Assembly (NCBI GenBank): GCA_964016885.1
Contig: CAXHJY010000065.1
Location: 31,164-95,163 of the forward strand
Source: Eledone cirrhosa
Taxonomy: Eukaryota
Direction of reading: 5' to 3'
Length of the DNA: 64,000 nucleotides
Below, one piece after another: positions 4,356-63,220 of this stretch. Below the pieces are notes generated by a model. That model worked only from the letters and a program-made list of their open reading frames with translations, had not been told where the DNA came from and searched no databases. The position numbers and the translations under genes were made by a program. Within the stretch, counting starts at the first letter, position 1. Each line of letters begins with the position of its first letter.

Positions 4356-5136
4356 TCTAGCTTATAATAAGAGTGCTGTCTGTCTGTCTGTCCATCTGTC
4401 ATACTCACTTTATATAAAGAGGGGAAGCACCAAGGAAAAGATATGTACATAAATAGAGAGAGAAAAGAGAGTGGCGTGTTTTCAAGGTAACAGACACAGA
4501 TAGATAGACAGAAAATTACGATGTTGCACTTATCTATATATAAACAGGGGAAGTATCAAGCAAGAGATATGGCCATAGAAAGAAAGAGAAAAGAGACACC
4601 ATGTATTTTCCAGGTGAAAAAAAGAGGTAGATAGACAGAAAGCTATGACATAGCTCTCGTCTATATATAGAGAGAGGGGGAGTACCAAGCAAAAGAGATG
4701 TACATAGATAGAGAGTGAAAATGAATGTCATTTCTTTAAAGAGAGAGTATGTGTGTGTGACAGATAGAGATAGAAGACAATATCACCGATATCTATATAT
4801 AGAGAGAGGGGGAACAGCAAGCTTTCATAAACAGATTCACGTGAAAACTGTTCAGCGGAGACAAACTGTGAATCATATTTATATTTAATTTAGTTCATTT
4901 TATTAAATTTGAAATTTGTATTACTCATTGAACAATAATGATAAATAATGGAATACATTTTTACATGAATTTACAAATAAATCATTAAGAACACTGTAGA
5001 GTTTCACATGCTTTTTTATGAAATAAAATTGTCTCTTTGCCATTTGCTCATATCTGCACACTTCAGAAAAGATGGGCTTAGACTGATTTTTTGAACAGGA
5101 AAATCATTGAGAACTTATTTCTCACAGACCAACTAG
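4356..5136 (+). mobile_element. Putative old non-autonomous Helitron
   Basis: 5' TCTAGCTTATAATAAGAG followed by (gtct)n; internal GA-rich repeats (tatatagagagaggggg...); 3' ...cacagaccaaCTAG, but the terminal hairpin is degraded. Confidence 0.4.
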
Positions 5137-5773: not shown

Positions 5774-8755
5774 CATCATCATCACCGTTTTATGTCCGTT
5801 CTTCCACGCTAGCATGGGTTAGACGGGTTGTCCTGTTGTGGGCAGTGTCTGGTCGGCTGACCATGCCTTGCTCATACAGGAACTGATTTGGCTTGATTTC
5901 TACAGCTGGATGCCCTTCGTAACACCAACCTCATTTACAGTGAGTGCTGGGTGCTTTTTCGTGGCGCCTACATGTCCACTTTACAGTGTGGGCTGGGTGC
6001 TTTTTTGCCGTGGCACCTCCACGACCACCTTGCAGTGGGGGGTGTGGGGGCATATTGTCTATATGCTTCAGCTTGTACCCAGAGGTGTAGTTGGGTAAGG
6101 TCGGCTTTTATCACCTCATCCCAGCTCATCTTGGGTCTCCCCACTCCGCGGTTTCCATCGACTTCTAGTGCTCTGCACCTTTTTATGCAGCTGTCATCCT
6201 TCATACGCATCACATGTCCATACCAGCGCAACCACCTCTCCTGCACACAACATTTGATTCCTCTTATGCTCAGTCTCTCTCACAATTCATTTATGGTTTG
6301 TCGTTCGCGTATATTACTGTTACACATCCATCGGAGTATGCAGGCTTCGTTTCTCTCTAATCTACGTAAGTCTTCTACAGACAGCGCCCAGGTCTCACTA
6401 CCATGCAACATCGCTGTTCGGATACACGCATCATACAGTCTGCCTTTTATTTTGAGGGAGAAGCCTTTTGCAGCTAGCAGTGGTAGTAGTTCCCTAAACT
6501 TCTTCCATCCCGTTCTTACCCTAGTTATTTTACTTTCTGGACACCCACCTCCGCTGCTAATTCGGTCACCTAGGTAGCAGAAGCTGTCTACTGTTTCTAC
6601 AGAGCCCTCCCAGAGATTGGTGGTACTTGTTTCCTGTGGCTGTTTGCTGCTTGCTGTCCCAGCACAGCTGCTGCATGTGAAGCCTACATTCTTAATTAAG
6701 CTTCCTGAGATCCCGCTACATCTCTTGTGTACCCATTGTTTGCATTTGGGCAGAGAATGGAGTCCCTACCTACACATTTCCTTCATACTGAACAAGGCCA
6801 TTTCCCTGAGTGGATCTGGGTTCTGTCTTCTCATCTACTTACAAGGACAAATGCCAGGTAGAGTGGCTTACTTTTAGCTAGGTACTTTTCCTGTAACTGC
6901 CTGACAAGGAAGAGGGCATCAGGGGTGCCTCTTCCTGGTACAAACCCAAATTGCATCTCGTCTAGTTTCACCCGGTCCCTAATCAACTGTGCTATAACTC
7001 TTTCTGTTACTTTCATGACCTGGCCCATCAGCTTTATACCTCTATAGTTTCCTCTATCTAGTGCATCACCTTTACCTTTGTAGCAGTTGACAATGATGCT
7101 ACTGCACCAATCTTTTGGTATGACACCTTCTAGTATTACCTGGTTAACAATACGTGTGGTTATAGTGTGACCTACAGACCCAGATGCCTTCAGCATCTCG
7201 GCAGCTATACCCGATGGACCGGTTGCCTTCCCCATCTTCATATCTTTGATTGCCTTACTTACTACGCTGCTGCTGACTTGTACTGCTGGCCCCTCTATAG
7301 GGTCTACTTGGGGTAGGGTCTCTTCTTCCCATGCATTCTCCTCATTTAGTAATCTATCATAATTGTTTCTACTTTTGGCACAAGGCCAGCAATTATCCCA
7401 GTGCATTACTGGTACTTTATTTTATCGACCCCGTAAAGATGAAAGGCAAAGTGAACCTCGGCGGGATTTGAACTCAGATCGTAAAGGGACGTAACTATGC
7501 TTGAAAGCATGGCGTCCGACCCTCTACCGATACTGCCAGTCCACCGACTCTTCCATGCATCTTTCTTCTCAGCACTTGTGAGGGCAAACTCACCTTTATC
7601 ATTCCGGATACACTTCTCTCCAATGACATCACAATTCTCTCTGACACACTGCCTCGCAATCTTGAATACCTCCTGTTTCTGGTCATCACGTTGCAAAACA
7701 TGCTTGAATTTTCTATCATCTGCTTCCCTCCTAGCTAAGTATACTTGTCGCCTAGCTTCCCTCTTGGTCTCTATGTAATGTACCCTGCTCCCCCAGTTCT
7801 TCCATTCTTTCCATGCCTGTCTCTTGGCCTTAACTGCCTCATCTACTTTATTGTTCCACCACCAAGTCACTCTCCTCCTGCTTGAGGTCTTACTCCAGCC
7901 ATAGACCTCATCCGTCGCCTCTAGTAAGTTATTTTTTAGGAACTCCCAGTTCTCTTCTACATCGAATGTCTCTATCTGTTCTTCTTTACTGTCGTAGGCG
8001 TTGAGTTAAATATCTTTAAATCTGTTACTAGTTGAGGGGTCTTTCAGCTTCCAGATCTTTCTTTTCCAGGTTCGCCTCTGTTTCCAGGTTTGTCTAGTTC
8101 TGACTGTGAGGTCGCTGACAACTAAGCTATGTTGGGATGTACATTCCTCACTAGAGAAGGCTTTTGTGTTTACGACCGTCCATCTGTCACGTCCTCTGAT
8201 GAGGATAAAATCTATCTGACTAGCGTGCTCCCCTGATCTATAGGTGATCAGGTGGTTGTCGGGTTTTTTAAAGTTTGTGTTACATATCGACATGTCATTG
8301 GCGTCGCAGAATTCTTGAAGTCTGAATCCTTCCTCATTTCTTGTGCCAACCCCATGGCCTCCATGTACTCTATTGAAGCCGTCGCAGTGTTTACCTACGT
8401 GTCCGTTAAAATCTCCTGCGATGATTAGGAAGTCATTGTCGTCTGTTAGAGCAGTAGTGTGCATTAAGGACTCGTAAAACCTATCCTTAAGTTCGTCTGG
8501 CAGCCCCGATTGGAGTGCGTAAGCTGATATTATTGTGGTAATTGTTTTATTCAGGACTAGTCTGAGTTTAATGATTCTTGCATTTACCCTGTACACTGAG
8601 ATTACTTTATCTACCCACTTGTCAGCTAGTAGTATACCTACACCAACCATCCCATCGTCATTTCCCACCCAGAAAAATTTGTAGCACCGACCTTTTCCTA
8701 CAAGGACTCTAGCAGACTCTCCTCTCCATCTAGTCTTTCGCACACAGCATACATT
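5774..8755 (-). mobile_element. Decayed RTE LINE (APE endonuclease + RT with core deleted) with composite 3' tail
   Basis: ORFs 8006-8743 (IAGDFNGHVG, SQIDFIL, SQHSLV), 7406-7870, 6831-7406 (NYRGIKL, QFGFVPGRGT) and 5968-6246 (LRWYGHVMRM); the tail reads (GAT)n on minus at 5774. Confidence 0.9.
7361..7546 (-). mobile_element. tRNA-derived Nin/Deu-like SINE nested in the RTE LINE
   Basis: Reverse complement of the 38154-38345 family; splits LINE residues AWKS / YDRLL. Confidence 0.9.
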
Positions 8756-9790: not shown

Positions 9791-11899
9791 GATTTCAGGA
9801 AATTGACCATAGTGCTTGGCTCGAAATAGTAATAATACAATTAATGCTGTATATATATGTAGTTTTGGAAGGATATGATGGCAACCATATGTAAGACAAA
9901 TATAAAGTGAAGCATGTATAGTATAGATTCATAAATAAACATTGATTATATAAGTATATGTCCACATCAAAGAGTACCACATGAAATAAAATGGATGGTG
10001 CTCGATAAGTCAATGCATATATCAATGGAATTAAAAGATGCTTACTCTGCCTCAGTGAAAAATTTAGGATTTTTCAAGTACTGTACTTACCAAACAAGTG
10101 TCTTAACTCCAAATTTGAGAGTTTTAGACATCAGTTTGCATCTGAAAAGCCATCTCCTGTCCAACTAGAATCCCATGCTCAAAATGTTCCATCATCTGAA
10201 CGACTAACTGCTTCATGCACTTATTTTCTGTCTCCTATACACATGGAAAAACGCACATATAACAGATCCCTAAGTGCACACACACACAGTTTGGATAGTA
10301 TTAAAAGCACAGATTACGCTTTGCCATTATTTAAATTCACACTAAATATGTTAATACGTAATCATTTATATAATAAATAGGGTGTTGCTACTGCTTCTGC
10401 TACTGCTACATCATCATCATCATCATCATCATCATCATTAACATAAACAGATATATATAGTATCTATTCTTAGTAGATACCGGTATGTTTATAAACATAT
10501 ATTCATACACACAGAAATATACAAATATTCTTACATCAACATACACATACACACATATATTGAATATTTTTACATTATATTTTCTATTGTTTTAGATTTT
10601 CATTGATTGGTAGAAAATATATCACGTCACATAAGAATCAATATTTTCTGAAATTCCTCTATGCTTGCTATTTACGAAAGTGACATTTAAGCTAGAGAAA
10701 TATCTTATGCTACCACCCAGTTCATTGTACTAAACTAAAATACATTGACCATATACTCTGTTTAACACAGAGACAATGGATTCTATTTGACAAGGAGAAA
10801 TAACTACTTTTAAATGTATCTACATATCCCTTTCATAAATCACAGGGAAGATATGTTTGTTTATGATTACATCAGTGTTTGTCTTTTTCTTTTTTCTCTT
10901 TTGAGTTTTAAATTTTATCTCATTTTTCTAAGTACATTTTTAAATTTGGTAGTGGTTCAAGGTTTATATATTGTGATTTTGTTTATAAATTTCAGCTTTG
11001 CATTCTATTTGGAAAGTCATAGATCATACATTTTAGCATCAACATAAATGTATGTTAAAATCATTCATTTGAGGATGAATGATATGAGTTAAAGAGAATT
11101 CTGGAAGAAAAATATCTGAAACTGAACTTAAAATAGAACTAATTATGAAAAGTCAGCTTTGAATTACGGTAGTGGGGGAATTGATTAAATTCAATGTTTT
11201 ACCTTTAAGAAGCTAATGATGGCTAAATAAAAAATTTAGAATAAATAGAATAAAATAGAATAAAATAAAATTCTTATTTAATCTTTGCAATTTACTTTCA
11301 AAGAGAATTTTGTATTTGAAATTACTTCCGCTAGTTGATTTCTTTAAATTTGTTCCCTTATAAATGGTTAAAGCAATTTCTTTTCCTTCATTCTTTTCTT
11401 TGTTGCATACTAGGGGAACTTTAATGTGTAGAATAGAAAGAGCTAGTAAATTTAGGTAATTTATGATTTGGCAACAAATGTATGACATTGCCCTTTACTG
11501 AAAACTTAGGGCAGATTTTTTTTTTCATAAGTAATTTTTATTTTGATTAAGCAATTATTGTGATTATGATGAGGATGAGGCAAAGATCTGGGAGATTACT
11601 TTTAAAGATTGCAGATTTATTACTTCATTAAATATATTTGAATATTGCATTTAATTTTTTAAATATATGTGTATAAATCACTAATGACTAATATGTTGAC
11701 TGATCTTTCACACATGCACACATCTCCTCCAACACCAAAACACCCTGGCAGATATTTGTAGACACTATCATAAACATATGTGCAAAACACACCCCAACAA
11801 GACCTGTGAACAAAACTATTCTCAGAAAACTAAAAAGAACAAACAAAAAAAATCAACAAATTAAAATACTGCCAACAACAACACACTGCTGTACACTGC

Positions 11900-12678: not shown

Positions 12679-12710
<32 letters not shown>

Positions 12711-12717
12711 CAAAGTA

Positions 12718-12890
12718 AACACTGTAAATGAGGTTGGTGTTAGGAAGGGCATCCAGCTGTAGAAATCAAGCCAAATCAGTTCCTATATGAGCAAGGCATG
12801 GTCAGCCGACCAGATACTGCCCACAACAGGACAACCCGTCTAACCCATGCTAGCGTGGAAGAACGGACGTAAAACGGTGATGATGATGAT
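12718..12890 (+). mobile_element. RTE-related SINE tail (5'-truncated)
   Basis: ggtgttaggaagggcatccagctgtagaa box, then ccatgctagcgtggaagaacggacgtaaaacggtgatgatgat; matches 16240-16410. Confidence 0.8.
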
Positions 12891-13031
12891 ATATATATAC
12901 AAAGGTTATATTTAATTTGTTGGAATTCAACAAACTTAAAAGTTTTTTAACTGATATAAAGCACTCAACAAATTAGTGGAGTAAATATTCAATATATTAA
13001 TAAATGGAAACTATATTTATAAAACCATAAT

Positions 13032-13097
13032 TATTTTATTATATATATTTCAAGGGCAACCAAGGCAAATTTTGGTGTGCTTTCATCAGATAAAATA
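13032..13097 (-). ncRNA. Type I hammerhead ribozyme motif (reverse copy)
   Basis: Exact reverse complement of 13184-13249. Confidence 0.75.
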
Positions 13098-13183
13098 CAA
13101 AATTTGTTTTATAAATGTTGACATACCCGCAAAAGAACAACCTTGATGGTTGGAGGTTCGCTGGATAGTAATAACAAATTTTG

Positions 13184-13249
13184 TATTTTATCTGATGAAA
13201 GCACACCAAAATTTGCCTTGGTTGCCCTTGAAATATATATAATAAAATA
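13184..13249 (+). ncRNA. Type I hammerhead ribozyme motif
   Basis: Stem I tattttat/ataaaata; CTGATGA 13192-13198; stem II aag..accaa/ttggt..ctt; GAAA 13230-13233; palindromic stem III A-tatata-T; predicted cleavage after A13241. Confidence 0.75.
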
Positions 13250-13314
13250 ATTATGGTTTTATAAATATAATTTCCATTTATTAATATAATGAATATATAT
13301 ATATATGTATATAT

Positions 13315-14303
13315 CATCATCATCGTCGTCGTTTAACGTCCATCTTCCACGCTAGCATGGGTTAGATGGTTTTGTTCCATTTGATGCGGGAATGGTTGGG
13401 AACCATGTCTCGCTCACATGGAAGCGTCTCTGGCAGGTCTTTTTACAGCTGTATGTCCTTCCTAACACCAACCACATTTACAGTGTGGACTGGGAGCCTT
13501 TTCACCGTGTCTCCTACACGGCCACCTTACAGTGTGGACTGTTGTGTCATCGATAGAGTGGATGGAACAGGAGAGGGTGGTGGGATATACATTGAGTTAA
13601 GAGGTGCTTACTGACTGTAGGTTTGTATGCAATGGTAGTAGGGTCTTCTGTACAACTGCATGGTGCCAAAGGTCTCAATCCAGTGTCATTGTCTTAGAGA
13701 GGTGTAGGTGGGCAAGGTCAGTTTATATCACCTCGTCCCAGGTTTTTCTTGGTCTACCCACTCTGCAGCTTCTATCAATTTTCATTGTCCTGCACTTTTT
13801 TATACAGCCGTCACATTTGCATACCAATGCAATCTCTTCTCTAGAACACAACATTTGATACTTTTTATGCTTAGTCTCCTTCTTAGTTCGTTTATGCTTC
13901 GCCTTTCGCGCACATTACTATTACACGTTCATCGGAGCATGCAAGCTTCATTTCTTTCTAATCTACGCAAGTCTTCAGCACACAATGCCCAAGTCTCACT
14001 ACCATGCAATCTGCCTTTCATTTTTAGAGAAAAACCCCTTGTGACCAACAGCAGTATTAGCTCTCTGAACTCTTTCCATCCCGTTCTAACTCTGGCTACT
14101 ACACTTTCAGAACACCCTCCTACACTGCTGATTTTGTCACCCAGGTAACGGAAGGTGTCTACTACTTCTATAGAACCATCTGGGCAGTTGAAGAAGATAT
14201 CATCCAGTGGGTCCTTGTTACTTGCATCTGAGCATCAGACACATATAAAATCTACATTCTTAGATAGCTTACATCTGATCCCACTTCATCTTTTATGTAC
14301 CCA
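13315..14303 (-). mobile_element. RTE 3' fragment with composite tail
   Basis: Reverse strand encodes part of the PHD, then FRYLGDKIS...WKEFREL...ETWALCAEDLRRLERNEA, followed by the tail and (GAT)n. Confidence 0.8.
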
Positions 14304-15922: not shown

Positions 15923-16598
15923 CCCTTTATCATTTACATTACCTTTAGCATTTACATTAGGTGAAGGTGCATGGCTTAGTGGTTAAAGCATTGGGCTTGC
16001 AATCAAAAGGTTGTGAGTTCAATTCTCAAACCGGGAGATGTGTTGTTTCCTTGAGCAAGACACTTTATTTTCACATTGCTTCAGTTTACTCAGTTGTATA
16101 AATGAGATGACAGGACTGGGGTCCCTCTCATTCCACTGCAAGGCGATCGTGGAGGTGCCACGGCAAAAAAGCACCCAGCTCACACTGTAAAGTGGACGTG
16201 TAAGCGCTACGGAAAAAAAGCACCCAGCACTTACTGTAAATGAGGTTGGTGTTAGGAAGGGCATCCAGCTGTAGAATTCAAGCCAGAATCAGTTCCTGTA
16301 TGAGCAAGACAAGGTCAGCCGACCAGACACTACCCACAACAGAACAACCCGTCTAACCCATGCTAGCATGGAAGAACGGACGTAAAACGGTGATGATGAT
16401 GATGATGATAATTACTCTATATATACTATTATATTTTCACTGTAAAGTCTTTACCTCACACAATTATTTCATATAATATCGAATCTATGAGATTTTGATA
16501 TTATTTATTTTGAGAGCAATACCATAACATCAATATGAGTGGTCAGTTACAGCCAGTTTGAACAGGAAGAGGACATGGCAAGTTTAAATGCTAAAGGG
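15923..16598. mobile_element. piggyBac-like MITE interrupted by a SINE
   Basis: TTAA-ccctttatcattta ... taaatgctaaaggg; 16420-16598 is a diverged reverse complement of 68-260. Confidence 0.65.
15961..16410 (+). mobile_element. Composite SINE: tRNA head + CORE/Meta-like central domain + RTE-derived tail
   Basis: A box TGGCTTAGTGG; B-box-like GAGTTCAATTC; tccttgagcaagacactt domain; repeated aaaaagcacccagc...actgtaaa; ggtgttaggaagggcatccag box; (GAT)n tail. Confidence 0.8.
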
Positions 16599-40989: not shown

Positions 40990-43900
40990 GACGTAAGATC
41001 TGTAAGCCGTAGTGTAGGCAACCTGTCTAGGAGAGCTACCACTCCGAATAAATTGGTGCGGGGTAGAGGAGTCCCTTAGTCCAGTAAGACAACTTCCCTA
41101 GTGTTGGTGGCACGAATAAAAGCACCCAGTCCATGCTGTAAAATGGAGGGGTGGATAGGGCTCCTGAATCCAGTAAGATGACCTCTCTAGTGCTGGTGGC
41201 ACAAATAAAAGCACCTCGTCCATGCTGTAAAATGGAGGGGTAAAGAGGGCCCCTGAGTTCAATAAGACAACCTCTCTAATGCTGGTGGCATCCAATCCAT
41301 GCTGTAAAGTGGTGCTGGTGTTAGGAAGGGCATCCAACCAGTATATATATTACTGCCAAACACTATGAATGCAACAAATGAAATTTGCAACAACTGCGTA
41401 AACAGCAATAACACTAACCATGTTAGGGCTGTGCATGGTAGTGGGGTGGCTGGTGCGGCCATGTGTAAGAACCCCACGACCATCATGAAGCAATCGCACA
41501 ACAGGAAAAAGAGTGAGATGTCACATCTCAGAGTTGCCACAATTAATGTTGACACTCTAACAGGTAGATCTGGTGAGATAGCGGAGATGCTGGAGAGAAG
41601 GCATGTGGATGTGTGCTGTGTGCAAGAGGTGAGATGGAGAGGTGCCGCTGCAAGACTAATCGCAGGCAAACATCGTAGTTATAAGCATTTCTGGGTGGGT
41701 AATGATGATGGGTTAGGTGGGATGGGCATATTACTGGCTGAGAGATGGATAAATAAGACAATAGAGGTAGTTAGAATTAGTGATAGAATAATTAAGCTTA
41801 GATTAGTTGTAGGCAGGAGACTACTGACAATCATCTCTGCCTATGCTCCCCAGGAAGGCCTAGGTAAAGAAGAGAGCAACTTTTACAAACTTCCTCAATG
41901 ACTGAGGACAGAGACATTGTTATGCTAGCAGGGGACTTCAATGGACATGTTGGACAGCTCCAGGATGGATACACTGGGGTACATGGTGGGCACGGTTATG
42001 GCTCAAGAAACGAAGAAGTGAGGCTTCTTGAATATGTGATGCAAGTGCATTAACCATTTGCAACACTAACTTCCAAAAACCTGCCAACCACCTAATAACC
42101 TACAAATTAGGCGAGCGCATAAGCCAGATTGACTTCCTGCTAGTTAGACAGCGAGACAGACAGATGGTGTCAAATACTAAGGCATACCCCTGGGAAGAAT
42201 GTACCCCACAGCATAGGTTAGTCATTAGTGACATCTCAGTAAGCATGAGAAAGAATGAGATATACAGGAAGGTGCAGAAAAGAAATGTCTGGAAGCTAAA
42301 AGACCTTTCATTAAAATATAAATTTAACAAAGCCCTTCAAGATGTGTATGACGAAAAAGAAGACGATTTAGAGTTGTATGACATAGATGATAACTGGAAT
42401 TTCTTGCATGACAACTTACTGCAGGCTACTGAAGAAACTTGTGGTTGGGGCAGAGCTTCAACCAAACAGAGAGTGACCTGGTGGTGGAACAGCACGGTAG
42501 ATAGGGCCATTAGAGACAAAAGACTGTCATGGAAGGCTTGGAAAAATGGTAGGAGTAGGGAAGGATACACAGCCACTAAGAGAGAAGCTAAACATCAGGT
42601 GTACTTAGCACGCAGGGAGGCTGAGAGTAGGAGGTTTGCCAATGTTCTGTGATGGGAAGATCAGAAACGTGTGGTGTTCCGCATTGCAAGGCAGTGTGTC
42701 AGTGAAAATCAGGATGTTGTTGGAGATAAGTGTGTCTGGAATGATGCCGGTGTACTTAGTCTCAGGAATGATAAAAAAAAAGGAGGCTTGGAAATGTCAC
42801 TATGAGAGACTGATGAATGTGGAGAACGAATAGGACAGAGAGAAATTACCCCCAGTAGACCCGACAGAGGGACCAGCTATTGAGATTGATGAATATAGGG
42901 TACAAGAGGCAATTAAGGAAATGAAGAATGGTAAGGCTGCTAGGCCATTGGGGATAGTTGCTGAGATGCTGAAGGCATCAGGAGAAGTAGGCACTAAACT
43001 GGTTGCACGCATCATCAATCAAGCTATATATGGTGGTGTCATACCCAAAGAATGGTGCAGCAGTATTCTCATAAATTGCTACAAAGGTAAAAGGGATGCT
43101 CTAGAGAGGAGCAATTATAGGGACATAAAGCTGATGAATCAGGTTATGAAAGTGGCAGAGAGAATATTGGTGCAACTAATTAGAGAAAGGGTCAAATTAG
43201 ATGAGATGCAGTTTGGTTTTGTGCCCCGGAAAAGTACAACACATGCCCTCTTCTTAGTGAGGCAACTACAAGAGAAGTTCTTAGAGAAGAATAAGCCACT
43301 ATACCTAGCTTTTGTTGACCTAGAGAAGGCCTTTGATAGGGTACCCCGATCTGTCATCTGGTGGTCCCTAAGGAAACTAGGTGTAGAAGAATGGCTTGTG
43401 AGGACAGTGCAAGCTTTGTACAGAGGTGCTGTCGGTAAAGTGAGGGTAGGAATAGAGTATAGTGGGGAATTCCAGATTCAAGTAGGTGTACATCAGGGTT
43501 CGGTCCTCAGTCCGCCTTTGTTCATTATAGTCCTCCAAGCCATAACAGAGGAGTTTAAGACTGGATGCCCATGGGAACCTCTCTATGCTGATGATCTTGT
43601 TCTTGTAGCAGATTCAGTAGAGGAACTAGAGAATAAATTCTGGCTTTGGAAACAGCAGTTGGAATCAAGAGGTCTAAGAGTGAACATAGCTAAGACAAAA
43701 GTGTTGATAAGTAGAAGAGAGGACAATATTCTGATTCCATCAGGGAAATGGCTATGTTAGATATGTAGGAAAGGAACTGGCATAAATTCCATAAAATGTA
43801 CGCAATGCAGATCTTGGGTACACAAGAGATGTAGTGGGATCGCAGGCAAACTAAGAGGTAGGGAAAACTACGTATGCAGTAGATGTACAGGGAAAGTTGG

Positions 43901-44689: not shown

Positions 44690-45285
44690 GGCTAAGGGGT
44701 CATCTCACCCAGTGATTTTGGATGGCCATTGACTCTTAAGAGCTCCTTTGCCCTTTGACAGGTTTTGTTTTTAGTCCTGCAGGATGTCCAAAGTCACCCT
44801 CCTCACCAAGAAACCTTGGTGGGATTGCCAGTTTAGTCGCCAACGACCCGACCATGAGACAGGTTGTACTGGGATACATGTTACCAGTAGCACCTTTGTC
44901 AAGGCAGAATTCTAAGAGAAGGAAAATTCTGATATAACACCTGCAACCCTGATGGTATCCAATGATGTTGACTTGTTCTTCTTTTTGGTAAATATCATCT
45001 TGGTTAAGAGAGTGGGACTGGCTTTGTGCAGTGCCTTTGCTCACTATAAAAGCTTCACAGCACAGGCATTGCTTTATATCTGGAGATCTCTCTGCACTTG
45101 TCGTCACATGGTACCATGGGCCCAGCACTATGTGTCAATAATTGTCACAAGTGTAGTGTTTGTACCAGAGTTTTTAAGTCGCTGGCTGGACTAAAAAGTC
45201 ACACTCGTTCAGCGCATCAGTAGGGGTTCTCCTACATGGATATAAAGTAGTGGCCGTACTCGAAAACGAGTTGGCAGCCACCATA
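44690..45285 (+). mobile_element. Putative bipartite non-autonomous RTE-derived element with a terminal C2H2 finger
   Basis: 45152-45217 encodes CSVCTRVFKSLAGLKSHTRSAH; the 3' stem-loop ggccgtactcgaaaacgag and a 5' block are shared with the reverse of 49020-49200. Confidence 0.5.
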
Positions 45286-46800: not shown

Positions 46801-46822
46801 GTAAGTATATATATATATATAA

Positions 46823-47421
46823 AATTTTCGCTCTACATGGCTGAATGTAATCTCAGTTTTTCGAATATTAATAATAACATTTGATTTATTTACAATTATG
46901 CAAACAAGCCTCATTTTTAACGCCATGTCAGTAGAATGAACTCTTCATTTTTGCTCTTGTGTTGGCATGTAAACAGAACTGCAGACACTAATGTTTCTGG
47001 GTATCACCCTTCATCAGTACAGCTCATTGTTCACCTGCCAACTGTCAGAGCTAGTGAAAATATATGCTATTTTCTAAAATATACAGTGACTGATCGGCCT
47101 GATTTGCATATTAGCAGACTGGCTGATCAGTGAGATCTGCATATTAGCAGATCCACTGATCAGCCAGATTTGCATATCAGCAGACTGGCCAGTCAGTTTC
47201 CTGTATACGAGTGATAAATGGCCAGCTTTGCCACATTCAAATAAAAGAGAATTTTTCACTCTACATGCCTGAATACAATAAATGTAATCTGAGTTTTTCG
47301 AATATTAATAACAACATTCGATTCATTTGCAATTATGCAAATAAGCCTCATTTTTAAAGCCATGCCAGTAGAATGAACGGTTCATTCTTGCTTTGGTGTT
47401 GGCATGTAACCAGAACTGCAG
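46823..47421. repeat. Diverged ~160-bp direct repeat pair
   Basis: 46823-46984 resembles 47251-47421 (ctctacatg.ctgaat...cagaactgcag). Confidence 0.85.
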
Positions 47422-47775
47422 TTCATATTTCTTCATGTGAACTTCATGTTATAAATTCAGTAAAGAAATATGTAATACTTGTTTGCATCGATTCTCCAGA
47501 ATATTTCACAATATTTATAATTTATAGAAAATACTGCACTATGGTCTGTATCAGTTCCCTATCTACAATATATATTTTTGATTGTCTTTAAAAGTTCTTA
47601 AATTTATACATAGAAATATTTATTATTATCAAATTTATACATAGAAATGCTTATTATTATCAAAATTTATACATAAAAATATTTATCTATTTATTATTAT
47701 CAAAACCATATTTACTATATGGTGCTCTGAAATCTCATAGAAATTTTTACTTATATTATAATTATTATTATATTA

Positions 47776-47890
47776 TAAGGATGAAAGGCAAGGTTGACTT
47801 TGCCTTTCATCCTTACGGGGTTGATAAAATAAAATACCAGTAATGCACTGGGTAATTGCTGGCCTTGTGCCTAAAGTAGAAACAATTATA
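47776..47890 (+). mobile_element. Truncated SINE with 5' foldback
   Basis: taaggatgaaaggcaaggttgactttgcctttcatcctta hairpin followed by the normal SINE 3' part. Confidence 0.8.
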
Positions 47891-48855
47891 TTATAATTAT
47901 AATATAAGTAAAATTATTAGATAAAACAATATATTGTAAAATTATTAAATAAAACAATATATTTTAAAATAATATACTTTCCTTAAATTACTAAACACCA
48001 CAGTTATCTTCCCCTTAAAAATGTTAGTTAACAATTCACATATACAATACATTCAAATTTACATAAATGTTTAAATTTATATCACTAACCTTATACAATA
48101 ATAGATTATGCCTAATACTATACATCTTTACTTTAAAAAAATATAATTACTTTCACATTTTTAAAGTATATATAAAAAATGCATATATATTATCGCTTGA
48201 TATATCTTACGTCTATATATATATATATATATCTTACGCTCATTTATAATTCTATGTCTATATATACACTTAAATAAGATCTATATTCACGCATAATCAT
48301 TTATGTTCCAAATAATTTTTTTTAATAACAATATTCAATAATGTCTTATACTGTAATACATTATATTTATAACTGCACTCATCAAAAAATATATCCCCTC
48401 GTATATCTAAATACAGGTTATCTTTCACATATTATATTGTTGTAATTGCTTTAATAAATTAATAGTTCTCAATTTAATACAATACAATAAAATTCTCACT
48501 AAATATTATAAATACTTCCATATTCTTAAAATATAATAACAAAATAAATAAATAAATAAATATAATTATATCATTCTTTCTATACCCATGTAAATATGTT
48601 TGGGTGTATATATGCATATTTCTATAAATAATACTAAAATAACTTTACAATATATACTTTTTTAAAAATTTAATTGCAAACCCTTTAAAATTTTTTAGAT
48701 AAATGTTTAAAATCTATCTAGCATCTAAACTTAACGGACTTTTTCAGTTTTAACGTTATCCTCAATAGCATATTTCCCCTTTTGAACAATTATATTCACT
48801 ATCTTCACTGAATTTATAACATGAAGATATGTCACTATCTTTACGCCAATTATTA

Positions 48856-48916
48856 TATTTTATCTGACGAAAGCATACTAAAATATTAGTACACTTGAAA
48901 TACGTATAATAAAATA
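48856..48916 (+). ncRNA. Type I hammerhead ribozyme motif
   Basis: tattttat CTGACGA aag ca tactaa aata ttagta ca ctt GAAA tacgta T A ataaaata; predicted cleavage after A48908. Confidence 0.8.
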
Positions 48917-48957
48917 AAACTGGTTTTATAAAAATATTTTCCATTTATTAATACTAT

Positions 48958-49008
<51 letters not shown>

Positions 49009-52123: not shown

Positions 52124-52378
52124 TGTGGGTATGGTGTGGCGTGCGGTGGCTGGAGGCGGGGGAGTGCTCGACCGGAAGGGTGCTTGGCCGGAAGGATGCT
52201 CGACCGGGAGGGCCAGCAGAGGGCCTCTCTCTAGTGGTGACCAGCAAACGGTGTGGACGCGAGTTTTGGGCAGCTCCCGGTGTTAAGCAGTTGGACGCAC
52301 GTGGAAGAGGAGTAACTTGTAGTGGAGTTTAGCGGCGCCTATGAAAAGCGGTAAGTGAGATAGCTTTTTCTAACCACA
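52124..52378 (+). repeat. 5' LTR (255 bp)
   Basis: Matches 56021-56258 except one extra 16-bp unit, a 1-bp indel and about 6 substitutions. Confidence 0.95.
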
Positions 52379-52457
52379 AGCTATTTCGGCGACTGGAAAA
52401 AAAACAAAAAAAAAAACACTTGCCGCAAGACAAATCAGAAGATGGCAACAAGACCGG

Positions 52458-53201
52458 ATGAACGAAGCTATCAGGGCATTTACCGGAGAAGGTGGTGTTG
52501 TCGCTTGGCTGCGGAAGGTTCGGTTGGTCGCAAGCTTGCAGAAGATAGAGGACGTGGCCGGCCTCATGGCACTGTACCTCGAGGGCGACACGTTGGTACT
52601 CTTCCTTGAGTTGGAAGAGCACAGTCAAAGAGATGCGCAGAAGATTGAGAGGCGTCTGATGGATGTATTCGGCGAGGGACCGTTGGCGGCTTTTGCTTAG
52701 CTGGAGAGAATCAGGTGGAATGGTGAGCGCGTCGACATTTTCGCAGTGGAAATACGGCGGTTGGCCATGTTGGCCGGTTACCAGGTGGAATGCGAACGCA
52801 CGGTGTGGTTGGCGTTCATCAATGGATTTCCGGACGACATAGCGGTGAAACTGCAGCAAGTCCCGGGTTATAAAGAGATGGAAATGCGTTCACTGGTGGA
52901 ACAAGCCCGGATCATAGCGGAGGATGCCAAAAAGAGTGTTGCGGCGATAGCAACTACGGAGGCTCAGGACACCTGGCAGCGAAATGGTGAAAGGGAGGCA
53001 ACCCCGGCACGCGGTCGCCCGCGAACGCTTAGAGGGCGCTGTTTGCGGTGCCAGGGCCCGCACATGGCTAGAGACTGTAGAGAGCCGAAGCCGGAGATAA
53101 TTTGCTACCGGTGTAAGCGACTAGGCCACATCGCTACTAACTGCGACCAGGTAAACGATCCAAGGGGAACTACTGCGCCGGTAGTTTCCCCTTACGAGTA
53201 G
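52458..53201 (+). pseudogene. gag: Gypsy Gag with two CCHC-type knuckles; one in-frame stop at ~52698
   Basis: ORFs 52458-52700 and 52746-53201 are in the same frame; CLRCQGPHMARDC and CYRCKRLGHIATNC. Confidence 0.9.
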
Positions 53202-56007
53202 CGGCGCTGCCCGTGGTGGAAGTCTTCGTGAGGGGGAAGCCACAGCAAGCCCTCGTGGATACGGGCTGTACGACGACACTGGTGACTGCGGGGGTGGCGC
53301 AGAGGTGGGGAGGGAAGAGCAGCGTAAGGGCAGTCGACGGCAGGAAAATTGAATGCCGAGGTCGCAGCGAGATGGAAATAGCGGTAAGGGGAAGGAGGAT
53401 AAGGCTTTCCGCCATTGTGGTAGACAGTGTGGTGGATGGGATCGGCGTGGTTATGGGCATGGACGCGATTGGCCGTCTAGGGGGCGTCACGGTGAACAAT
53501 GTCGGTGTGTCGTTTGGCGCCGCTGCATCGGTATGCGCTGTGAGTGCACGTCATGAGAACCAGAAGGCCCACGAGGAGGAATACCCCGCTTACACTGTGC
53601 AGGACAAAGAATTCAAGGCCGTGTTTGATGGGAAGCGATGGGTTGTTGAGTGGTACTGGAAGGGAGAACCACCAACACTGAAGACCAAAGTGGGCTGCTA
53701 TCAACGCACATTGAAGGGAAACGCTAGGAGCGAGTTGGAGCGAGAAGTAGAGAGATGGATCGAAGAGGGCATACTGCTTCCCTGGAAGGAGGAGGTGAAG
53801 TGCGGAGTATTGCCGTTAATGGCGGTGGTGCAACCCACGAAGTGCAAGGTGAGGCCGGTGCTGGACTATCGGGAGCTGAACGAGCACGTGTCATGCCACA
53901 CGGGTGGCGAGGTCACGGATGTCTGTAGGGAAACCCTGCATGAGTGGAGACGCATGGGGGATCTAAAGTCGGCTTACTTGCAGTTGCATATAGATGAGAA
54001 GCTCTGGCGGTATCAGCTGGTCAGGTATAAGGGCCGGACATATTGCCTGACCAGGCTTGGTTTCGGGCTGAAGTCCGCACCGAAGATCATGGCGGCGGTC
54101 CTCAAGACCGCTCTGGGGAGGGCCGACAATGTAAAGAGGGCTACTCTCTCCTATATTGACGACATCCTAGTGGACGAGTCGGTGGTGTCGCGGCGGAGGT
54201 CACGAGCCATTTACGGAGGTATGGACTGACTGCGAAGCCATCAGAAGCATTGGAGGGAGGAGCCGCGCTGGGACTTAGGCTACGGCGAGACAGGACGGGC
54301 GTTTTGGTATTCCAGAGGGGAAACGAAGTTCCGGAACTGGGCCCAAGTATGAGTAGGCGGGAGCTTTTCTCGGTGTGTGGAAAGCTGGTGGGTCACTACC
54401 CGATCGCTGGGTGGCTCCGGACAGCATGCAGCTATGTCAAGAGACGAGCGGGAGGGGTGACTTGGAGTGACAGAGTGGGAGAGAGGACGGTGGCCATGAT
54501 GCAGGAGATCATGGGGAGGGTGAAGGCCGACGACCCAGTGCGGGGACGCTGGTATGTTCCCAAATCACAGAGCGGGACCGTATGGTGCGATGCCAGCAGC
54601 ATAGCGCTGGGTGTCACGTTGGAGATAGGAGGTGTTGAGGTCGAGGATGCAGCCTGGCTTAGAAAGAAGGACGACTGCAACCACATCAATGTGGCCGAGC
54701 TGGACGCGGTGTTGAGAGGGGTGAACCTCGCCCTGCGGTGGGGGCTGCGCACCATCGAGATACGCACTGACTCGGCTACTGTACTCGGATGGGTAAGATC
54801 AGTGCTCACCAGTGAGAAGAGAGTGCGAACGAGAGGCGCGGCGGAGATGCTGATAAAGCGCCGCCTGGGAACGTTAAGAGAGCTGGCCACCGAGTTCGAC
54901 CTGAAGCTGAGCGTAGTTTTCGTGCCCTCAGAGAAAAATAGGGCGGACATCTTAACTAGAGTGAAGAAAGCCTGGATGGAAGCGCCGGAGGAGGTAGAGG
55001 ATGAGATAGCTGCCGTGTGTCGGCTGACCGAGTCAGATCTGAAGGGGTTGCATGACATGCACCACATGGGGGTGGATAGGAGCCTGTTCCTAGCCAGGAG
55101 AATCGACTCGGACGTTAGCAGACACAGTGTTCGGCGGGTGGTTAGAGGCTGCGTCCGATGTCAGTCCATTGATCCCGCCCGGGGTGTACACGAAACGGGA
55201 AGCCTCCCGGTGGATCGCGACTGGAAGCGATTAGCGGTGGATGTGACGCACTACCGGCAGGGAACGTACCTCTCGATGGTCGACTGTGGACCAGGTCGAA
55301 TGGCGATATGGAGGGAGATGAGGACTGGAACGGCCGAGGAAATCGTGCGGACGTTGAGAGAGGTGTTCTTGGAGCGGGGCCCTGTGGACGAACTGCTGAT
55401 GGTCAACAGCGCAGCGTTCCGCTGGGAGGCACTCTGGGAGATGTTCGATGGATAGAAGGTGGACCGTTTCTTCAGAGCGGCGCACAGGCCGAGCGGCAAT
55501 GGAATCGTGGAGCGACACCACCGGACGATCAAGGCAATGGCGGAGCGGGGCCATATCTCACCAATGGAGGCAGTGTTCTGGTACAATATGTCCCCTCGGG
55601 TTGGACAGGTCGAGGAATCGGTGCCACACAGAGCAGTATTCAAATACGAGTGGCGGCACCCGTGCACGCCACCACAACGGCCAGTGGGAAGAGAGAGTGC
55701 ATTTGTGCAGGTGGGCGAAGAAGTCTGGGTTAAGCCCCCAGATGCACGTTGCACATCTCAATGGGGAAGGTTAACGGTGACGGCCGTAAATTCAAAGGAC
55801 AATGTGTCCGTGGACGGGGTACCACGTCATGTCCTGGATGTAAGAAGAATCACTGTGTCGACGGACTCCGAGGAAGAGGAAACCCAAGATGAGGTGGAAA
55901 CCCAGAGCTCTGCCCCAATACTTCGGAGATCGCAACGAAGTCGTAGACCACCAACCTGGACAGCAGACTTTCATATGCAGAGGGACGAGGGGCAAATTGA
56001 TCCTTGA
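53153..56007 (+). pseudogene. pol: Gypsy Pol (protease, RT, RNase H, integrase) with a frameshift and a stop
   Basis: ALVDTGCT; DLKSAYLQ and YIDDIL; WCDASS and INVAELDA; HDMHHMG...CVRC, LAVDV and GIVERHHRTIK. Confidence 0.92.
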
Positions 56008-56020
56008 GATCAGGGGGGCG

Positions 56021-56258
56021 TGTGGGTATGGTGTGGCGTGCGGTGGCCGGAGGCGGGGGAGTGCTCGACCGGAAGGATGCTCCATCGGGAGGGCCAGCAG
56101 GGGGCCTCTCTCTAGTGGTGACCAGCAAACGGTGTGGACGCGAGTTTTGGGCAGCTCCCGGTGTTAAGCAGTTGGACGCACGTGGAAGGGGAGTAACTTG
56201 CAGTGGAGTTTAGCGGCGCCTATGAAAAGCGGTAAGTGAATAGCTTTTTCTAACCACA
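56021..56258 (+). repeat. 3' LTR (238 bp)
   Basis: Direct repeat of 52124-52378. Confidence 0.95.
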
Positions 56259-56524
56259 AGTACTTTAAATAAAGCCTTTATTGTACAGCCAACCATGTTA
56301 ATCTTCCTTCTTTAACTATTATTACTCCAAGTATAACCTGCATAAAAATTACCGCGAACTCGCTGCATAAGTATGGAAACATCTTGTTGAGTAAAAAAAA
56401 GCCGTACGTTAAAACTATCCACGATGCAGAGCACTCACAATCTCTAACTGGATTACCTCTAACGATAACTTGTTATCTCATATATATATATATATTTTTT
56501 TTTCAACTAGCAATATATATATAT

Positions 56525-57470
56525 ACTAGACATGAAAAATGCGCAAGCTCAAAAGTGCCACAGAATGTTATAATAAACCTTCAAAAGTGTGGGACTAGAG
56601 TTGTTGCTAAAAAATATTGTAATCATTATATATCGTACATTCTGTGGCATCCTTTATAAAAATAGCTTAAACCAACGAAGCCTTTATTTTTACGCTATTT
56701 CACTTAGTTAATTCTTAGAGTGTAACATATAAAAATATCATTTACAACTATAAAATAAATTAATTAATATAATAACAGAGCTGCGGAGCTGAAATTTAGG
56801 AAATAATGGAGTATCGGATCCTGAGTTGGAGCCAGTCAATTGTTGGCCGACTCCGCAGCCCTGTATAATACATTTCATATTAAAGTTATTAATAAACCTC
56901 ATGCAAATTACCACGAGATATTGATATTAGATATAAGATACAGCGCAATATCTACAGCTGTAAAAGTACGAAAGCGAAGTAATAATAAGTGGCTTAAGGT
57001 AATTCCAATATGAAAGTTTGTAGTGATAAAAATTTGATAATGCAATACGATTGTTAATATTATAGTTCTATGAAAATGTAACAATAGATAACTAAATTAT
57101 TTTACTATTAGTATATTTAAGAAATTATCATTATAGATTTGATCGTTCATATAAGCATCATATTAAGTTTCAACACAATTATTTTGTTACTATGAGTATA
57201 TGATAATAATATTACGTAATTATTTATAGCTGTTATTACATTAAACATAGATGTATTTATTTTTATATGTTACACTCTAAGAATTAACTAAGTGAAATAG
57301 CGTAAAAATAAAGGCTTCGTTGGTTTAAGCTATTTTTATAAAGGATGCCACAGAATGTACGATATATAATGATTACAATATTTTTTAGCAACAACTCTAG
57401 TCCCACACTTTTGAAGGTTTATTATAACATTCTGTGGCACTTTTGAGCTTGCGCATTTTTCATGTCTAGT
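56525..57470. repeat. Perfect 213-bp inverted repeat around a 520-bp spacer (foldback-type element)
   Basis: 56525-56737 is the reverse complement of 57258-57470, with no mismatch seen by eye. Confidence 0.92.
56776..56863. mobile_element. Short hAT-like MITE
   Basis: TIR cagagctgcggag / ctccgcagccctg; 8-bp flanks tataataa / tataatac. Confidence 0.6.
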
Positions 57471-58017
57471 TTAATATTTTTTTAAGGCAACGCTTGTAAT
57501 AAACAGGATATATATTAATAATAAATTATCGTTGTAATGTAATTAGATTATGTAATTGTTATTATAAATTATCTTATAAATATTAGTGTAAGATGTATAA
57601 AAATATTTTCAGACTTTTAATATAAACAACTAGAAAAAACAATCAATATTAAATCAATATATTATACATAATAGAAAACATAAAATATACAATACAAAAA
57701 CAAAATATTTACATACAATTGCAATTATCAGTGTATATACATTTTCTTTATATTCCCTGAGCAAATTAATAAGATTTGTTTTTATTGTACATAATTTGAT
57801 GACTTGTTGGAGTGTATTAAAAGATAGCAACAATTTGTGATTAAATTGTTATCTTAAGCAACTCACTTTTTAATAGTTGTTGGCTGAGCGAAATTGTAAA
57901 AGCCTATGAGCAAATATAAAAAAAAATACACAAACAACATTTCCTTGTGTTATTACAACATTAGATAAAATAATTGAGCAATGTCGTTATATTTTGCTCT
58001 TATTGCACATTAATAGT

Positions 58018-60020: not shown

Positions 60021-60923
60021 GATATACAGGGGGAGCATAAAGTCTTTGAAACTACATAACACACAGAGCGTTTTGTTTCATAGATGCTATTTTATTACTG
60101 AAAATTTCAACTACCTGTTGAACAGAAAATGTAAATCATGTTGAGAAAAAATTTTAATTCATAATTTAAAACAATGAAAAAGTAAAATCTCAAATAGTAT
60201 CTGAGATATGGTATTTTATAATCAAGGAAACACTTAATGCTCACTCTGTTTATATTATGTGTGTGTGTGTAAATACCTCTATGTGTATTAGTGTTTGTAC
60301 TGATATATTATTTCTAATATCTCTCTCTAAAATGATCACATACATAATACATATTTCGAGCATGAAACAATTATAAATAAGCATTTTCTCTGATTTGATA
60401 TATTTATTACACCTCAGTGAGATTAGCTTAAGTAAAATGGCAGCTACATATAATAATTCTCTCATGAATTTCTAATCAATCATAATTTTACTTTCAATTT
60501 AAATAAATATATATTCCAGCACATTTTCTATCTTATTTCACTTTTTTGTCATCATATTGTATTTGCCTTTCTAATATATAGTATCTGTGTGAGAGAGAGA
60601 GAGAATGGGAAGTCAGATTTGCGACTTGTTATGAAACTCCATTGCATATTACAACAGTTTCGATATCGATCAGCTCAGGTTTGAACAAGTGATCAGATCC
60701 CGACTTTTAATCGACACGCCTTCAGATTGAGAGTTTATATAGGTGGTCCCATCCAAATCTGACTTTCTGTTGTCACTCTACAAACTACAGCTGCCTTAAA
60801 CCTAGAGCACAACCCAATGAGAGACAGACCCCGTGTAACAGAATCAAATGTTTCAACCAGCGTTGCTGCTCACCACAAATTATTCACGTAATAACATATA
60901 TATATATATATTTTGCCCTCTGT

Positions 60924-61337
60924 TTGGATAGAAATTTGGTGTATAAATGCACCGTAAAAACAAATAACAACACATACAACTACATAGGAGCAACTTCTTC
61001 AACATTTAAAGCAAAATTTGCGAATCACAAATGCTCATTCTCGAATTCTAATAGGAAGTCTTCGACTTCTTTATCACAGCTTATATGGTCATTAAAAGAC
61101 AAAAATTTAAAATACTCGATCTTTTGGATGAAGCTTTGTAATAGTGGAGTTTATGTCAACTCTTGTATATCAATTAACTGCAGCCTCTGTACAAAGGAGA
61201 CCCTATTAATAATTAATAGTTATGAAAACTTAATTAACAAAAAAAGTGAATTATTCTCAAACTGCCTTCATAAAGCTTTGTCTACATTCCAAGCCCCGCA
61301 AAAAGTCAAGACAAAAACAGTAAGCAATCAAGCATGA
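60924..61337 (+). pseudogene. GIY-YIG endonuclease domain of a Penelope-like element
   Basis: NLVYKC...YIGAT..TFKAKFANHK.SF....STSLSQLIW.LKD...CSLCTKE....LINKKSELFSNCLH. Confidence 0.85.
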
Positions 61338-61820: not shown

Positions 61821-62093
61821 TAAAACTACTAACAATGATTATAATTGCTATTTTTTATTAAATGTATACCGCTTCATTAATACCTAGTATAACTATATAT
61901 AGTTTGTGCAAATATTTTTATCTAGTGTAATAACATAATCGTAGTTACATTTATATAAAACTACTAACAATGATTATAATTATTATTCTTTATTAAATGT
62001 ATACCGTTTCATTAACACCTAGTATAACTATATATAGTTTGTGCAAATATCTTTATCTAGTATAATAACATAATCGTTGTTACATTTATATAA
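61821..62093. repeat. 135-bp tandem duplication
   Basis: taaaactactaacaatgattataatt... at 61821 and 61956. Confidence 0.9.
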
Positions 62094-62975
62094 ATAATTT
62101 AAACACTCAAATGACATTATTATAAGTGTTTGGTTTTCCCTGGAAGGTGGAACTTATATAATCATTTACTTAATACAATATATGAAATAATAAATTATAG
62201 TCTTGGTATATTATGATCAATACACACATATATATATCTGAAAACTCTGACCTCTTTAAGTTTAATTATAAGCGCTGTTATAACTTAAGGCACTCAAACT
62301 ATTTAACAATAAATTCTTTAATAGTTATAACTATAAATATCTCATAAATTATATAATAAGAACTGTTGTCAATATTATAAGTAATTTTGGTAAAGATTAC
62401 CTTTGTGGGGATATCGAACATTATATGTATATTTGCTTTCTTTCGCGGGTTTCGTAAATCCTTTATATTTGTCTTCATAAAATTTGAATTTTAGAAATTT
62501 AACATTACATTATAATATTCATACATATACCCATCAACTTTTAAAACCTAAAATTTGATTCTTTACCCTGAAATAACATAAATTAAATATTTTTGAAAAT
62601 TAACCGCCAACTTTATTTGAATATGTGTATGTAGAAACTTGAGCATAAATTACTGCCCTTTGCCTCTTTCTCTCTTTATTCATCTTTCATCTCAAGCTAA
62701 ATACTAAATAAGTTATAACATCAGCTACTTCTTCCTCTATGCTTTCCTCTCCCGCATATTTCTCTAGTAGTTTTTTAAATATTAAAAATTCTATAACTGT
62801 TATATTGATGCCATGTATTTCTTATATTACTCACACTCTCTCTATTGATTGTATTACGTATTCTCATGTTCTCAATATTAAGGTATAAATAATGAGTTTC
62901 CTCATAAGTTAATCAGTACCTTGATTAAATCTTAACCATCTACCATGTCAGGGTATGTCATGTATCATTTTATTT

Positions 62976-63042
62976 TATTTTATCTGATGAGGACGTACTG
63001 TTGAACTTAATTCAGTACCTCTGAAATATGTATAATAAAATA
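62976..63042 (+). ncRNA. Type I hammerhead ribozyme motif
   Basis: tattttat CTGATGA gga c gtactg [12 nt] cagtac c tct GAAA tatgta T A ataaaata; predicted cleavage after A63034. Confidence 0.75.
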
Positions 63043-63180
63043 TATATATTGACCACGAGAATATCTATTTTGTTAATATTTTGAATTAATATTAATAACT
63101 CCGGAAAATATTTTTTGTAGAGTACTTCCAATCTATTGTAAAACTCATTCTTTGATGTATTCATTGAATCTTGTTTAACT

Positions 63181-63220
<40 letters not shown>

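Follow-up and report, generated by a model that had tools for sequence, protein, structure and literature searches.

The 397-bp insert at positions 12900-13296 is very probably the scar left by one retrotransposition event of a Penelope-like element (PLE) family that bears hammerheads, or of a non-autonomous derivative of such a family; the 3' end of the element is present in it twice, head-to-head, within (TA)n. We favor this reading because the anatomy is asymmetric, the outer ends recur in independent copies, and the spacer between the two arms is homologous to other copies on one strand alone. The insert has the structure of a PLE insertion and works like one. The origin given in the original prediction, an inverted pseudo-LTR from a Penelope-like element, is supported.

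Anatomy of the insert and its relatives

The window (the whole 64-kb stretch of DNA that was analysed, to which all copy counts refer) is AT-rich and microsatellite-rich, crowded with retroelement fragments, and resembles an animal genome; its short repeats may resemble those of octopus. The inverted arms of the insert (12985-13108 and 13173-13296) are each 124 bp long and identical at 122/124 positions, with mismatches at 13011/13270 and 12992/13289. A repeat search lengthens the arms to 127 nt at 98%, and 64 nt (13109-13172) separate them, in good agreement with the near-perfect arms of about 125 bp and the spacer of about 60 bp described at the outset. RNA editing of one template was considered as the source of one A/G arm difference and set aside, as a single site is no evidence. 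The TA runs expected at both outer ends are present on the right, where the arm adjoins (TA)n (13293-13314, the first bases overlapping the arm end), but not on the left, where the closest (TA)n (12890-12899) lies 85 nt beyond 12985. This makes the insertion asymmetric, with limits at about 12900 and 13296.

Read on the minus strand, the spacer corresponds to upstream sequence of the family, and the insert therefore consists of a long truncated copy plus an inverted short copy. The long copy (12900-13172, minus strand, 273 nt) was delimited by blastn and alignments and is a 5'-truncated copy of the element's 3' end, comprising an upstream hairpin, the hammerhead, a 3' segment and a tail; in blastn, 13128-12889 matches 62951-63194 (63% over about 256 nt, E 3e-13). 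The short copy (13173-13296, plus strand, 124 nt), also 5'-truncated, begins 19 nt upstream of the hammerhead core and terminates at the family's short 3' end. Running from 13172 to 12900 and from 13173 to 13296, respectively, the two copies are joined head-to-head within (TA)n and differ in their 5' ends.

Two other family loci were identified in the window, both on the plus strand and with a single hammerhead. The one at 48795-48959 (core 48864, helix III AUACGUAU) is 77% identical to the arm and has a short 3' end, and the one at 62912-63182 (core 62984, helix III AUAUGUAU) is 65% identical and has a long 3' end. A covariance model built from the three copies and run with filters off gave 24 matches at E<=5, and no copy beyond those three and the right arm scored above 19 bits. 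Upstream of the 63-kb hammerhead is a non-coding direct duplication with a period of 135 nt (61821-62123, 88% over 168 nt).

As in PLEs, the hammerhead lies near the 3' end in 4/4 copies, with 51-148 nt from the cut to the end. The right arm and the 48.9-kb copy each stop 51 nt past the predicted cut, and the left copy and the 63-kb copy stop at 140 and 148 nt, respectively. Short and long ends are thus represented by 2/4 copies each, and 4/4 copies end at (TA)n.

The 85-89 nt extension that only the left copy carries (the tail, 12900-12984, minus strand; fold z -2.24 on that strand) shows modest similarity to the tail of the 63-kb copy. Shuffles did as well in 11/1000 local, 6/200 anchored and 87/2000 global comparisons, and random AT-rich windows in 16/1000, giving modest support for tail homology (p about 0.01-0.04). 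An AT-rich stretch at 4879-4978, seemingly unrelated and chosen post hoc, outscores the tail match in the local test (1/1000), and the tail claim therefore rests on position as much as on score. That stretch is without a hammerhead and was dropped as a family copy, being probably an AT-rich chance match.

Homology of the spacer (13109-13172) to other copies was found on the minus strand. In anchored comparisons, it resembles the upstream sequence of the 48.9-kb copy (5/300 shuffles equal) and of the 63-kb copy (9/300), a comparison that depends on two diverged copies; read on the plus strand, it adds no homology to either. The fold z is -2.88 on the minus strand versus -0.28 on the plus strand. 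A hairpin occupies the same place in all three loci and is recovered with covariation by RNAalifold, the motif UAUGUCA follows it invariantly in the three, and the 5' end of the long copy lies 3 nt before it. The 48.9-kb hairpin folds no better in sense (z -1.43) than in antisense (z -2.00). We regard the conserved hairpin upstream of the hammerhead as a candidate cis element, for which no description was found in the accessible parts of the literature examined.

The flanks belong to unrelated repeats, both with (GAT)n tails and both directed towards the insert. On the left is the 3' end of a repeat (12720-12889, plus strand) that is 97.6% identical to a copy at 5774-5942. On the right is a fragment (13311-14300, minus strand) of a LINE-like family with many paralogues (65-88%) and RT-family ORF fragments, including RVT_1 on a longer paralogue at 42834; we take this family to be RTE-like. 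Similarity between the left and right repeats is only 76%, and they come from different subfamilies. No junction microhomology is visible at the insert outside the arms. A blastn search of 12900-13300 against plasmids and phages gave no match, and a sigma-70 promoter scan, which uses a bacterial model inapplicable to a eukaryote, was at chance level.

Hammerhead ribozymes and their predicted folding

Both arms encode the same type I minimal hammerhead, and the two point outward on opposite strands as first described. The right-arm copy (13184-13249, plus strand) was identified by motif and a descriptor test and has its core at 13192-13198, GAAA at 13230-13233 and a predicted cut after 13241; the identical left-arm copy (13032-13097, minus strand), identified by motif, has its core start at 13089 and a predicted cut after 13040. 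The parts are an 8-bp helix I, CUGAUGA, a 31-nt helix II domain, GAAA, the 8-nt palindrome AUAUAUAU and an AUA triplet. CUGAUGA, GAAA and AUA are present in both arms and the core reads CUGACGA at 48864, the variation among the three loci falling solely at the free position N7.

Helix I (8 bp) is invariant in 3/3 loci, and 5/9 pairs of helix II change on both sides among the three sequences. Helix III self-pairs at 8/8 positions in 3/3 copies (two via G-U in the 63-kb copy), and its center varies (UA, CG or UG) with self-complementarity retained. Over the entire structure, 9/29 pairs are altered on both sides, compared with 0/500 shuffles that reach this count and at most 2 pairs in slid controls; because the count derives from three sequences that are 64-77% alike and from a structure obtained from the same sequences, it is supportive and not a p-value. 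At the level of sequence, the covariation and the kept palindrome indicate that a dimer-type ribozyme was selected for among the source elements. The closing pair of helix II (10.1-11.1) is A-U in the cassette and the 48.9-kb copy and G-U at 63 kb, rather than G10.1-C11.1.

A strict hammerhead descriptor, composed after the motifs were seen, matches the window at 5 sites, all of which have a helix I of 8 bp; on 100 locally shuffled windows the mean was 0.01 matches, with 1/100 windows having one. Rfam did not report a hammerhead family at the gathering threshold or at E<=10. The 8 matches at E<=10 on 12700-13500 are of hairpin type or weak and all below gathering, with miRNA hairpin models among them, likewise below their gathering scores, and 0 hammerheads. 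A type III reading with an upstream GUC was rejected, as by eye its helix I has just 1-3 bp in the three copies. The core, the helices and the palindromic helix III fit a minimal type I (PLE-type) hammerhead with predicted cut sites.

Nearest-neighbour folding, a prediction that leaves out tertiary contacts and proteins, gives a long duplex for a read-through transcript (-181.6 / -189.3 kcal/mol). The pairing probability of helix II is about 1e-20 with the antisense arm versus 0.83-0.98 without it, and the expected occlusion of the ribozyme by the long hairpin is borne out in this model. It would not constitute an off-switch, since monomer helix I has a predicted probability of at most 1.5e-5 even without the antisense arm. 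Release of free ribozymes by transcription from the spacer is not supported, given the same value and the dimer dependence of minimal hammerheads, of which any transcript has only one in sense. Single minimal hammerheads showed no cleavage in vitro in the available parts of PMC4209133, and the helix III self-duplex is predicted at just -3.2 kcal/mol. The ribozyme needs a same-strand partner and each strand carries one sense; thus, the cassette ribozymes are probably inactive and silent at this locus. Read-through of the insert would yield a 124-bp dsRNA as a by-product.

Relation to known elements and coding sequences

An inverted 5'-truncated copy with a one-sided tail of 30-40 bp is a typical PLE arrangement (PMC8557442, Fig. 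2), and inverted pLTRs of unequal length, one with a tail, have been reported (Arkhipova 2013, PMC3846280). Like the EN+ PLE insertions in the accessible parts of these two sources, the insert is head-to-head and has an AT-rich or (TA)n target; its copies are truncated to different extents at the 5' side, and just one of them carries a tail. Unlike them, its copies are too short for an ORF, its tail has 85-89 nt rather than 30-40, and its junction is a 64-nt hairpin loop with no palindrome. The architecture is ordinary and already in print, and the family is probably undescribed. Short family motifs had no exact match in the available part of the Craig 2021 supplement (PMC8557442), where line breaks may conceal matches.

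The Hydra clade fits in part, as far as its tabulated sequences allow the comparison. In the supplement of PMC8557442, Penelope-13_HM is listed with an inverted copy attached to it, the same hammerhead on each strand and (TA)n as target; the insert shares with this and other Hydra-clade PLEs the two-strand identical hammerheads, the (TA)n insertion and the long self-complementary helix III. It also has U before GAAA, as do 17/25 Hydra-clade families (counted by eye in the supplement), and the distance from core to end (96-101 or about 190-200 nt in our family) fits the 64-187 nt (one at 402) of 24/25 Hydra families. The U15.2-A16.2 pair and the roughly twofold tail length do not fit. The Hydra-clade signature of a helix III starting AC with a GUH triplet is absent from the cassette, which has AU...AUA instead; 25/25 tabulated Hydra hammerheads have C15.2, and 0/25 have U15.2-A16.2. 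Targeting of (TA)n is also a feature of Naiad (PMC8557442), and the 4/4 (TA)n ends are thus not diagnostic of the Hydra clade.

In PMC4209133, Schistosoma Cercyon PLEs and a Cotesia bracovirus PLE carry minimal hammerheads in pairs, one on each strand, with a separation of about 100-700 bp. The cassette resembles these in its opposite-strand minimal hammerheads (a distance of 103 nt between the cores), in the U-rich sequence on their 5' side, in the palindrome of helix III and in the AU-rich 3' flank, and its U15.2-A16.2 palindrome is of a kind also found in Aedes and Drosophila PLE hammerheads (PMC4209133). It differs from the hammerheads described there in that the highly conserved G10.1-C11.1 is lacking, helix I is longer (8 bp) and helix II is interrupted. 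Non-LTR retrozymes (PMC7229834; bioRxiv 10.64898/2026.07.22.740005, as far as accessible) are likewise non-coding, derived from PLE pLTRs and equipped with a type I hammerhead. They form head-to-tail tandems that allow dimeric cleavage and circles, whereas the insert is head-to-head, with no dimer in cis.

No RT or endonuclease is directly attached to any copy of the family in the window. In the regions upstream of the 48.9-kb and 63-kb copies (roughly 1.0 and 1.3 kb), Pfam gave 0 matches in 12/12 read-through frames, and a Hydra-type profile built from 22 of 150 endonuclease homologues gave none in these regions.

A remnant of a Hydra-type Penelope GIY-YIG endonuclease was identified at 60900-61337 (plus strand; 3447 phmmer matches at E<=0.001, profile iE 1e-38), with 38% identity over 134 aa to the C-terminus of the 713-aa P0150. 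The protein motifs of the Hydra clade are RWK, DKT, CxCX5C and CxxC/CxH, the last flanking a conserved E and N (PMC8557442, in part). In the remnant, CxxC and CxH flank conserved E and N, and its longest homologues have RWR/RWQ, DKT and CxCX5-7C. Pfam did not name GIY-YIG on this ORF and a word-indexed search of longer proteins scored 0/310 candidates; an atlas lead (score 0.94, GIY-YIG on 11% of one cluster) pointed to the identity, which the full phmmer search settled. The remnant lies on the same strand as the 63-kb copy, 1.65 kb upstream, with (TA)n in between, and no hammerhead core was found between it and the next (TA)n at about 61632. From its sequence, the remnant shows that Hydra-type elements were once active in this genome; it does not imply that they own the hammerhead family. 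A second scrap of a Hydra-type PLE endonuclease occurs at 10009-10128 (plus strand).

Several other elements were observed in the window. A different hammerhead family at 46821-47421 (minus strand; core 47017, GUC site, 8-bp helix I, 10-nt self-complementary helix III) forms a partial tandem with a period of about 430 nt, ends at (TA)n and is retrozyme-like. Its duplicated 172 nt begin precisely at the nucleotide where cleavage is predicted (46984 / 47421), as expected if self-cleavage generated the template's 5' end. Fused to the 5' end of this element is a long hairpin (47422-47490, minus strand) with a 21-nt exact inverted match to the 48.9-kb upstream hairpin (48790-48830, plus strand), the longest in 500 shuffles being 17; beyond the 21-mer, homology between the two is not significant (17/200 shuffles). 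The region 46821-48960 may thus be a second head-to-head composite, with outward hammerheads of two families. Another hammerhead-like core (49324, plus strand; homologue at 44965-45072, minus strand), the third in kind, has a 4-bp helix II, a minimal ACGU helix III and a lost helix I, and is probably the decayed end of another PLE family.

At 56522-57473, perfect inverted repeats of 216 bp surround an AT-rich spacer of 520 nt, with (TA)n on the left; no hammerhead core and no obvious TSD were found there, and this is a better MITE or fold-back candidate than the head-to-head insert. From about 52300 to 56300 (plus strand) extends a GC-rich element resembling an LTR retrotransposon, with Pfam matches for aspartyl protease and RT and more ORFs in several frames. 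A tRNA-like sequence at 15972-16029 (plus strand, 33.2 bits), the sole Rfam match at the gathering threshold, is probably a SINE head.

Competing origins and the route of insertion

Mobility of the cassette as a MITE-like unit, as originally proposed, is not supported: the inverted repeats do not form the termini, the spacer derives from upstream in the element, and a second hammerhead arm is present in 0/2 of the remaining hammerhead loci that the family has in the window. An upstream origin of the spacer is half of what the original prediction named as its refutation. A true MITE, that is, a class II non-autonomous element with a captured hammerhead in its TIRs and moved by a transposase, would account for a short non-coding unit with long near-perfect inverted repeats in an AT-rich TA context. 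We consider it extremely unlikely, given the 85 nt of family sequence beyond the left arm, the contiguity of the spacer with one arm, and the occurrence of the arm sequence elsewhere in the window in single-orientation copies, whose 5' ends vary and 3' ends are fixed. No TSD or transposase-type ends were found at the insert, where the (TA)n target masks any TSD. A search by title and abstract, in literature mostly outside subscription journals and Repbase/Dfam, returned no unit-mobile hammerhead-bearing MITE-like element.

The pair could also have arisen once as a PLE scar and now spread as a unit, making the 397-bp insert a mobile, protein-free hairpin retroelement that has PLE priming sites at its two ends and depends on a Penelope-type RT/endonuclease for copying in trans. 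With 98.4% identity the arms are young, putative cis-acting RT start sites lie at the two outer ends, no family copy has a linked ORF, and pLTR sequences alone sufficed for trans mobilisation in Adineta (PMC3846280, in part). This is nonetheless very improbable, as the inner junction occurs in 0/2 of the remaining family loci with a hammerhead in the window, and in a full-length transcript both ends would be hidden by a duplex at about -190 kcal/mol. If it were true, the unit would pass for a MITE, end up wrongly classified among DNA transposons and supply dsRNA directed against its parent family. On the same improbable reading, the family at large, with its hairpin, UAUGUCA, hammerhead of the AUA type and two 3' ends some 90 nt from each other, may be a non-autonomous PLE parasite, dispersed and ORF-less.

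Two further explanations dispense with a second PLE-made copy. DNA that is AT-rich and flanked by microsatellites is unstable, and near-identical arms are expected if a single copy underwent inverted duplication after insertion, by a template switch in replication or repair and without the PLE enzyme. Against this, the arm reaches precisely to the short 3' end natural to the family, at 51 nt past the cut like the 48.9-kb copy, and no flanking DNA is included in the duplicated arm, and we judge such a duplication very unlikely. Short-read assemblies are known to have difficulty with the inverted structures of PLEs (PMC8557442, in part), and the flanking repeats also face each other, lengthening the palindrome-like region. 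An assembly fold-back would scarcely produce the 2 arm differences, the unequal ends and flanks from different subfamilies; with insert and flanks both asymmetric, an artefact of this kind is most improbable.

Returning to the PLE scar, we propose that a PLE RT/GIY-YIG protein would nick both strands of the TA repeat, and that each 3'-OH would prime reverse transcription of uncleaved element RNA, one at a distal and one at a proximal internal start site. Both cDNAs would stop early and be joined in the middle. The anole PAc protein offers a parallel, in that it nicks and extends both strands, with reverse transcription from two internal sites defining the tail, on uncleaved RNA (PMC11167929, in part). 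Given a PLE origin, this route of two nicks and two primings is on balance probable. Quite possible, under the same assumption, is an alternative in which one cDNA folds back and copies itself up to the short end, a self-priming route proposed for Adineta (PMC3846280, in part) that demands a second arm stopping at the family's short end. The twin priming first suggested applies loosely, in the sense of two priming events. In L1 twin priming, the 3' part becomes joined to a 5' part that is inverted (PMC10760644, in part), and here both arms are the same 3' segment. The hammerhead would be a passenger in this process, its palindromic helix III having been selected for pairing between same-strand copies in tandem source transcripts.

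How PLEs form the second strand and inverted copies is still open in the available parts of PMC11167929 and PMC3846280, and pairs of long and short ends make the question countable. Mostly long-plus-short pairs with arms diverged beyond their age would favor two priming events, and identical arms with fold-back microhomology would favor self-priming. The insert is also a compact caution that doubly truncated PLE insertions mimic MITEs or pre-miRNAs.
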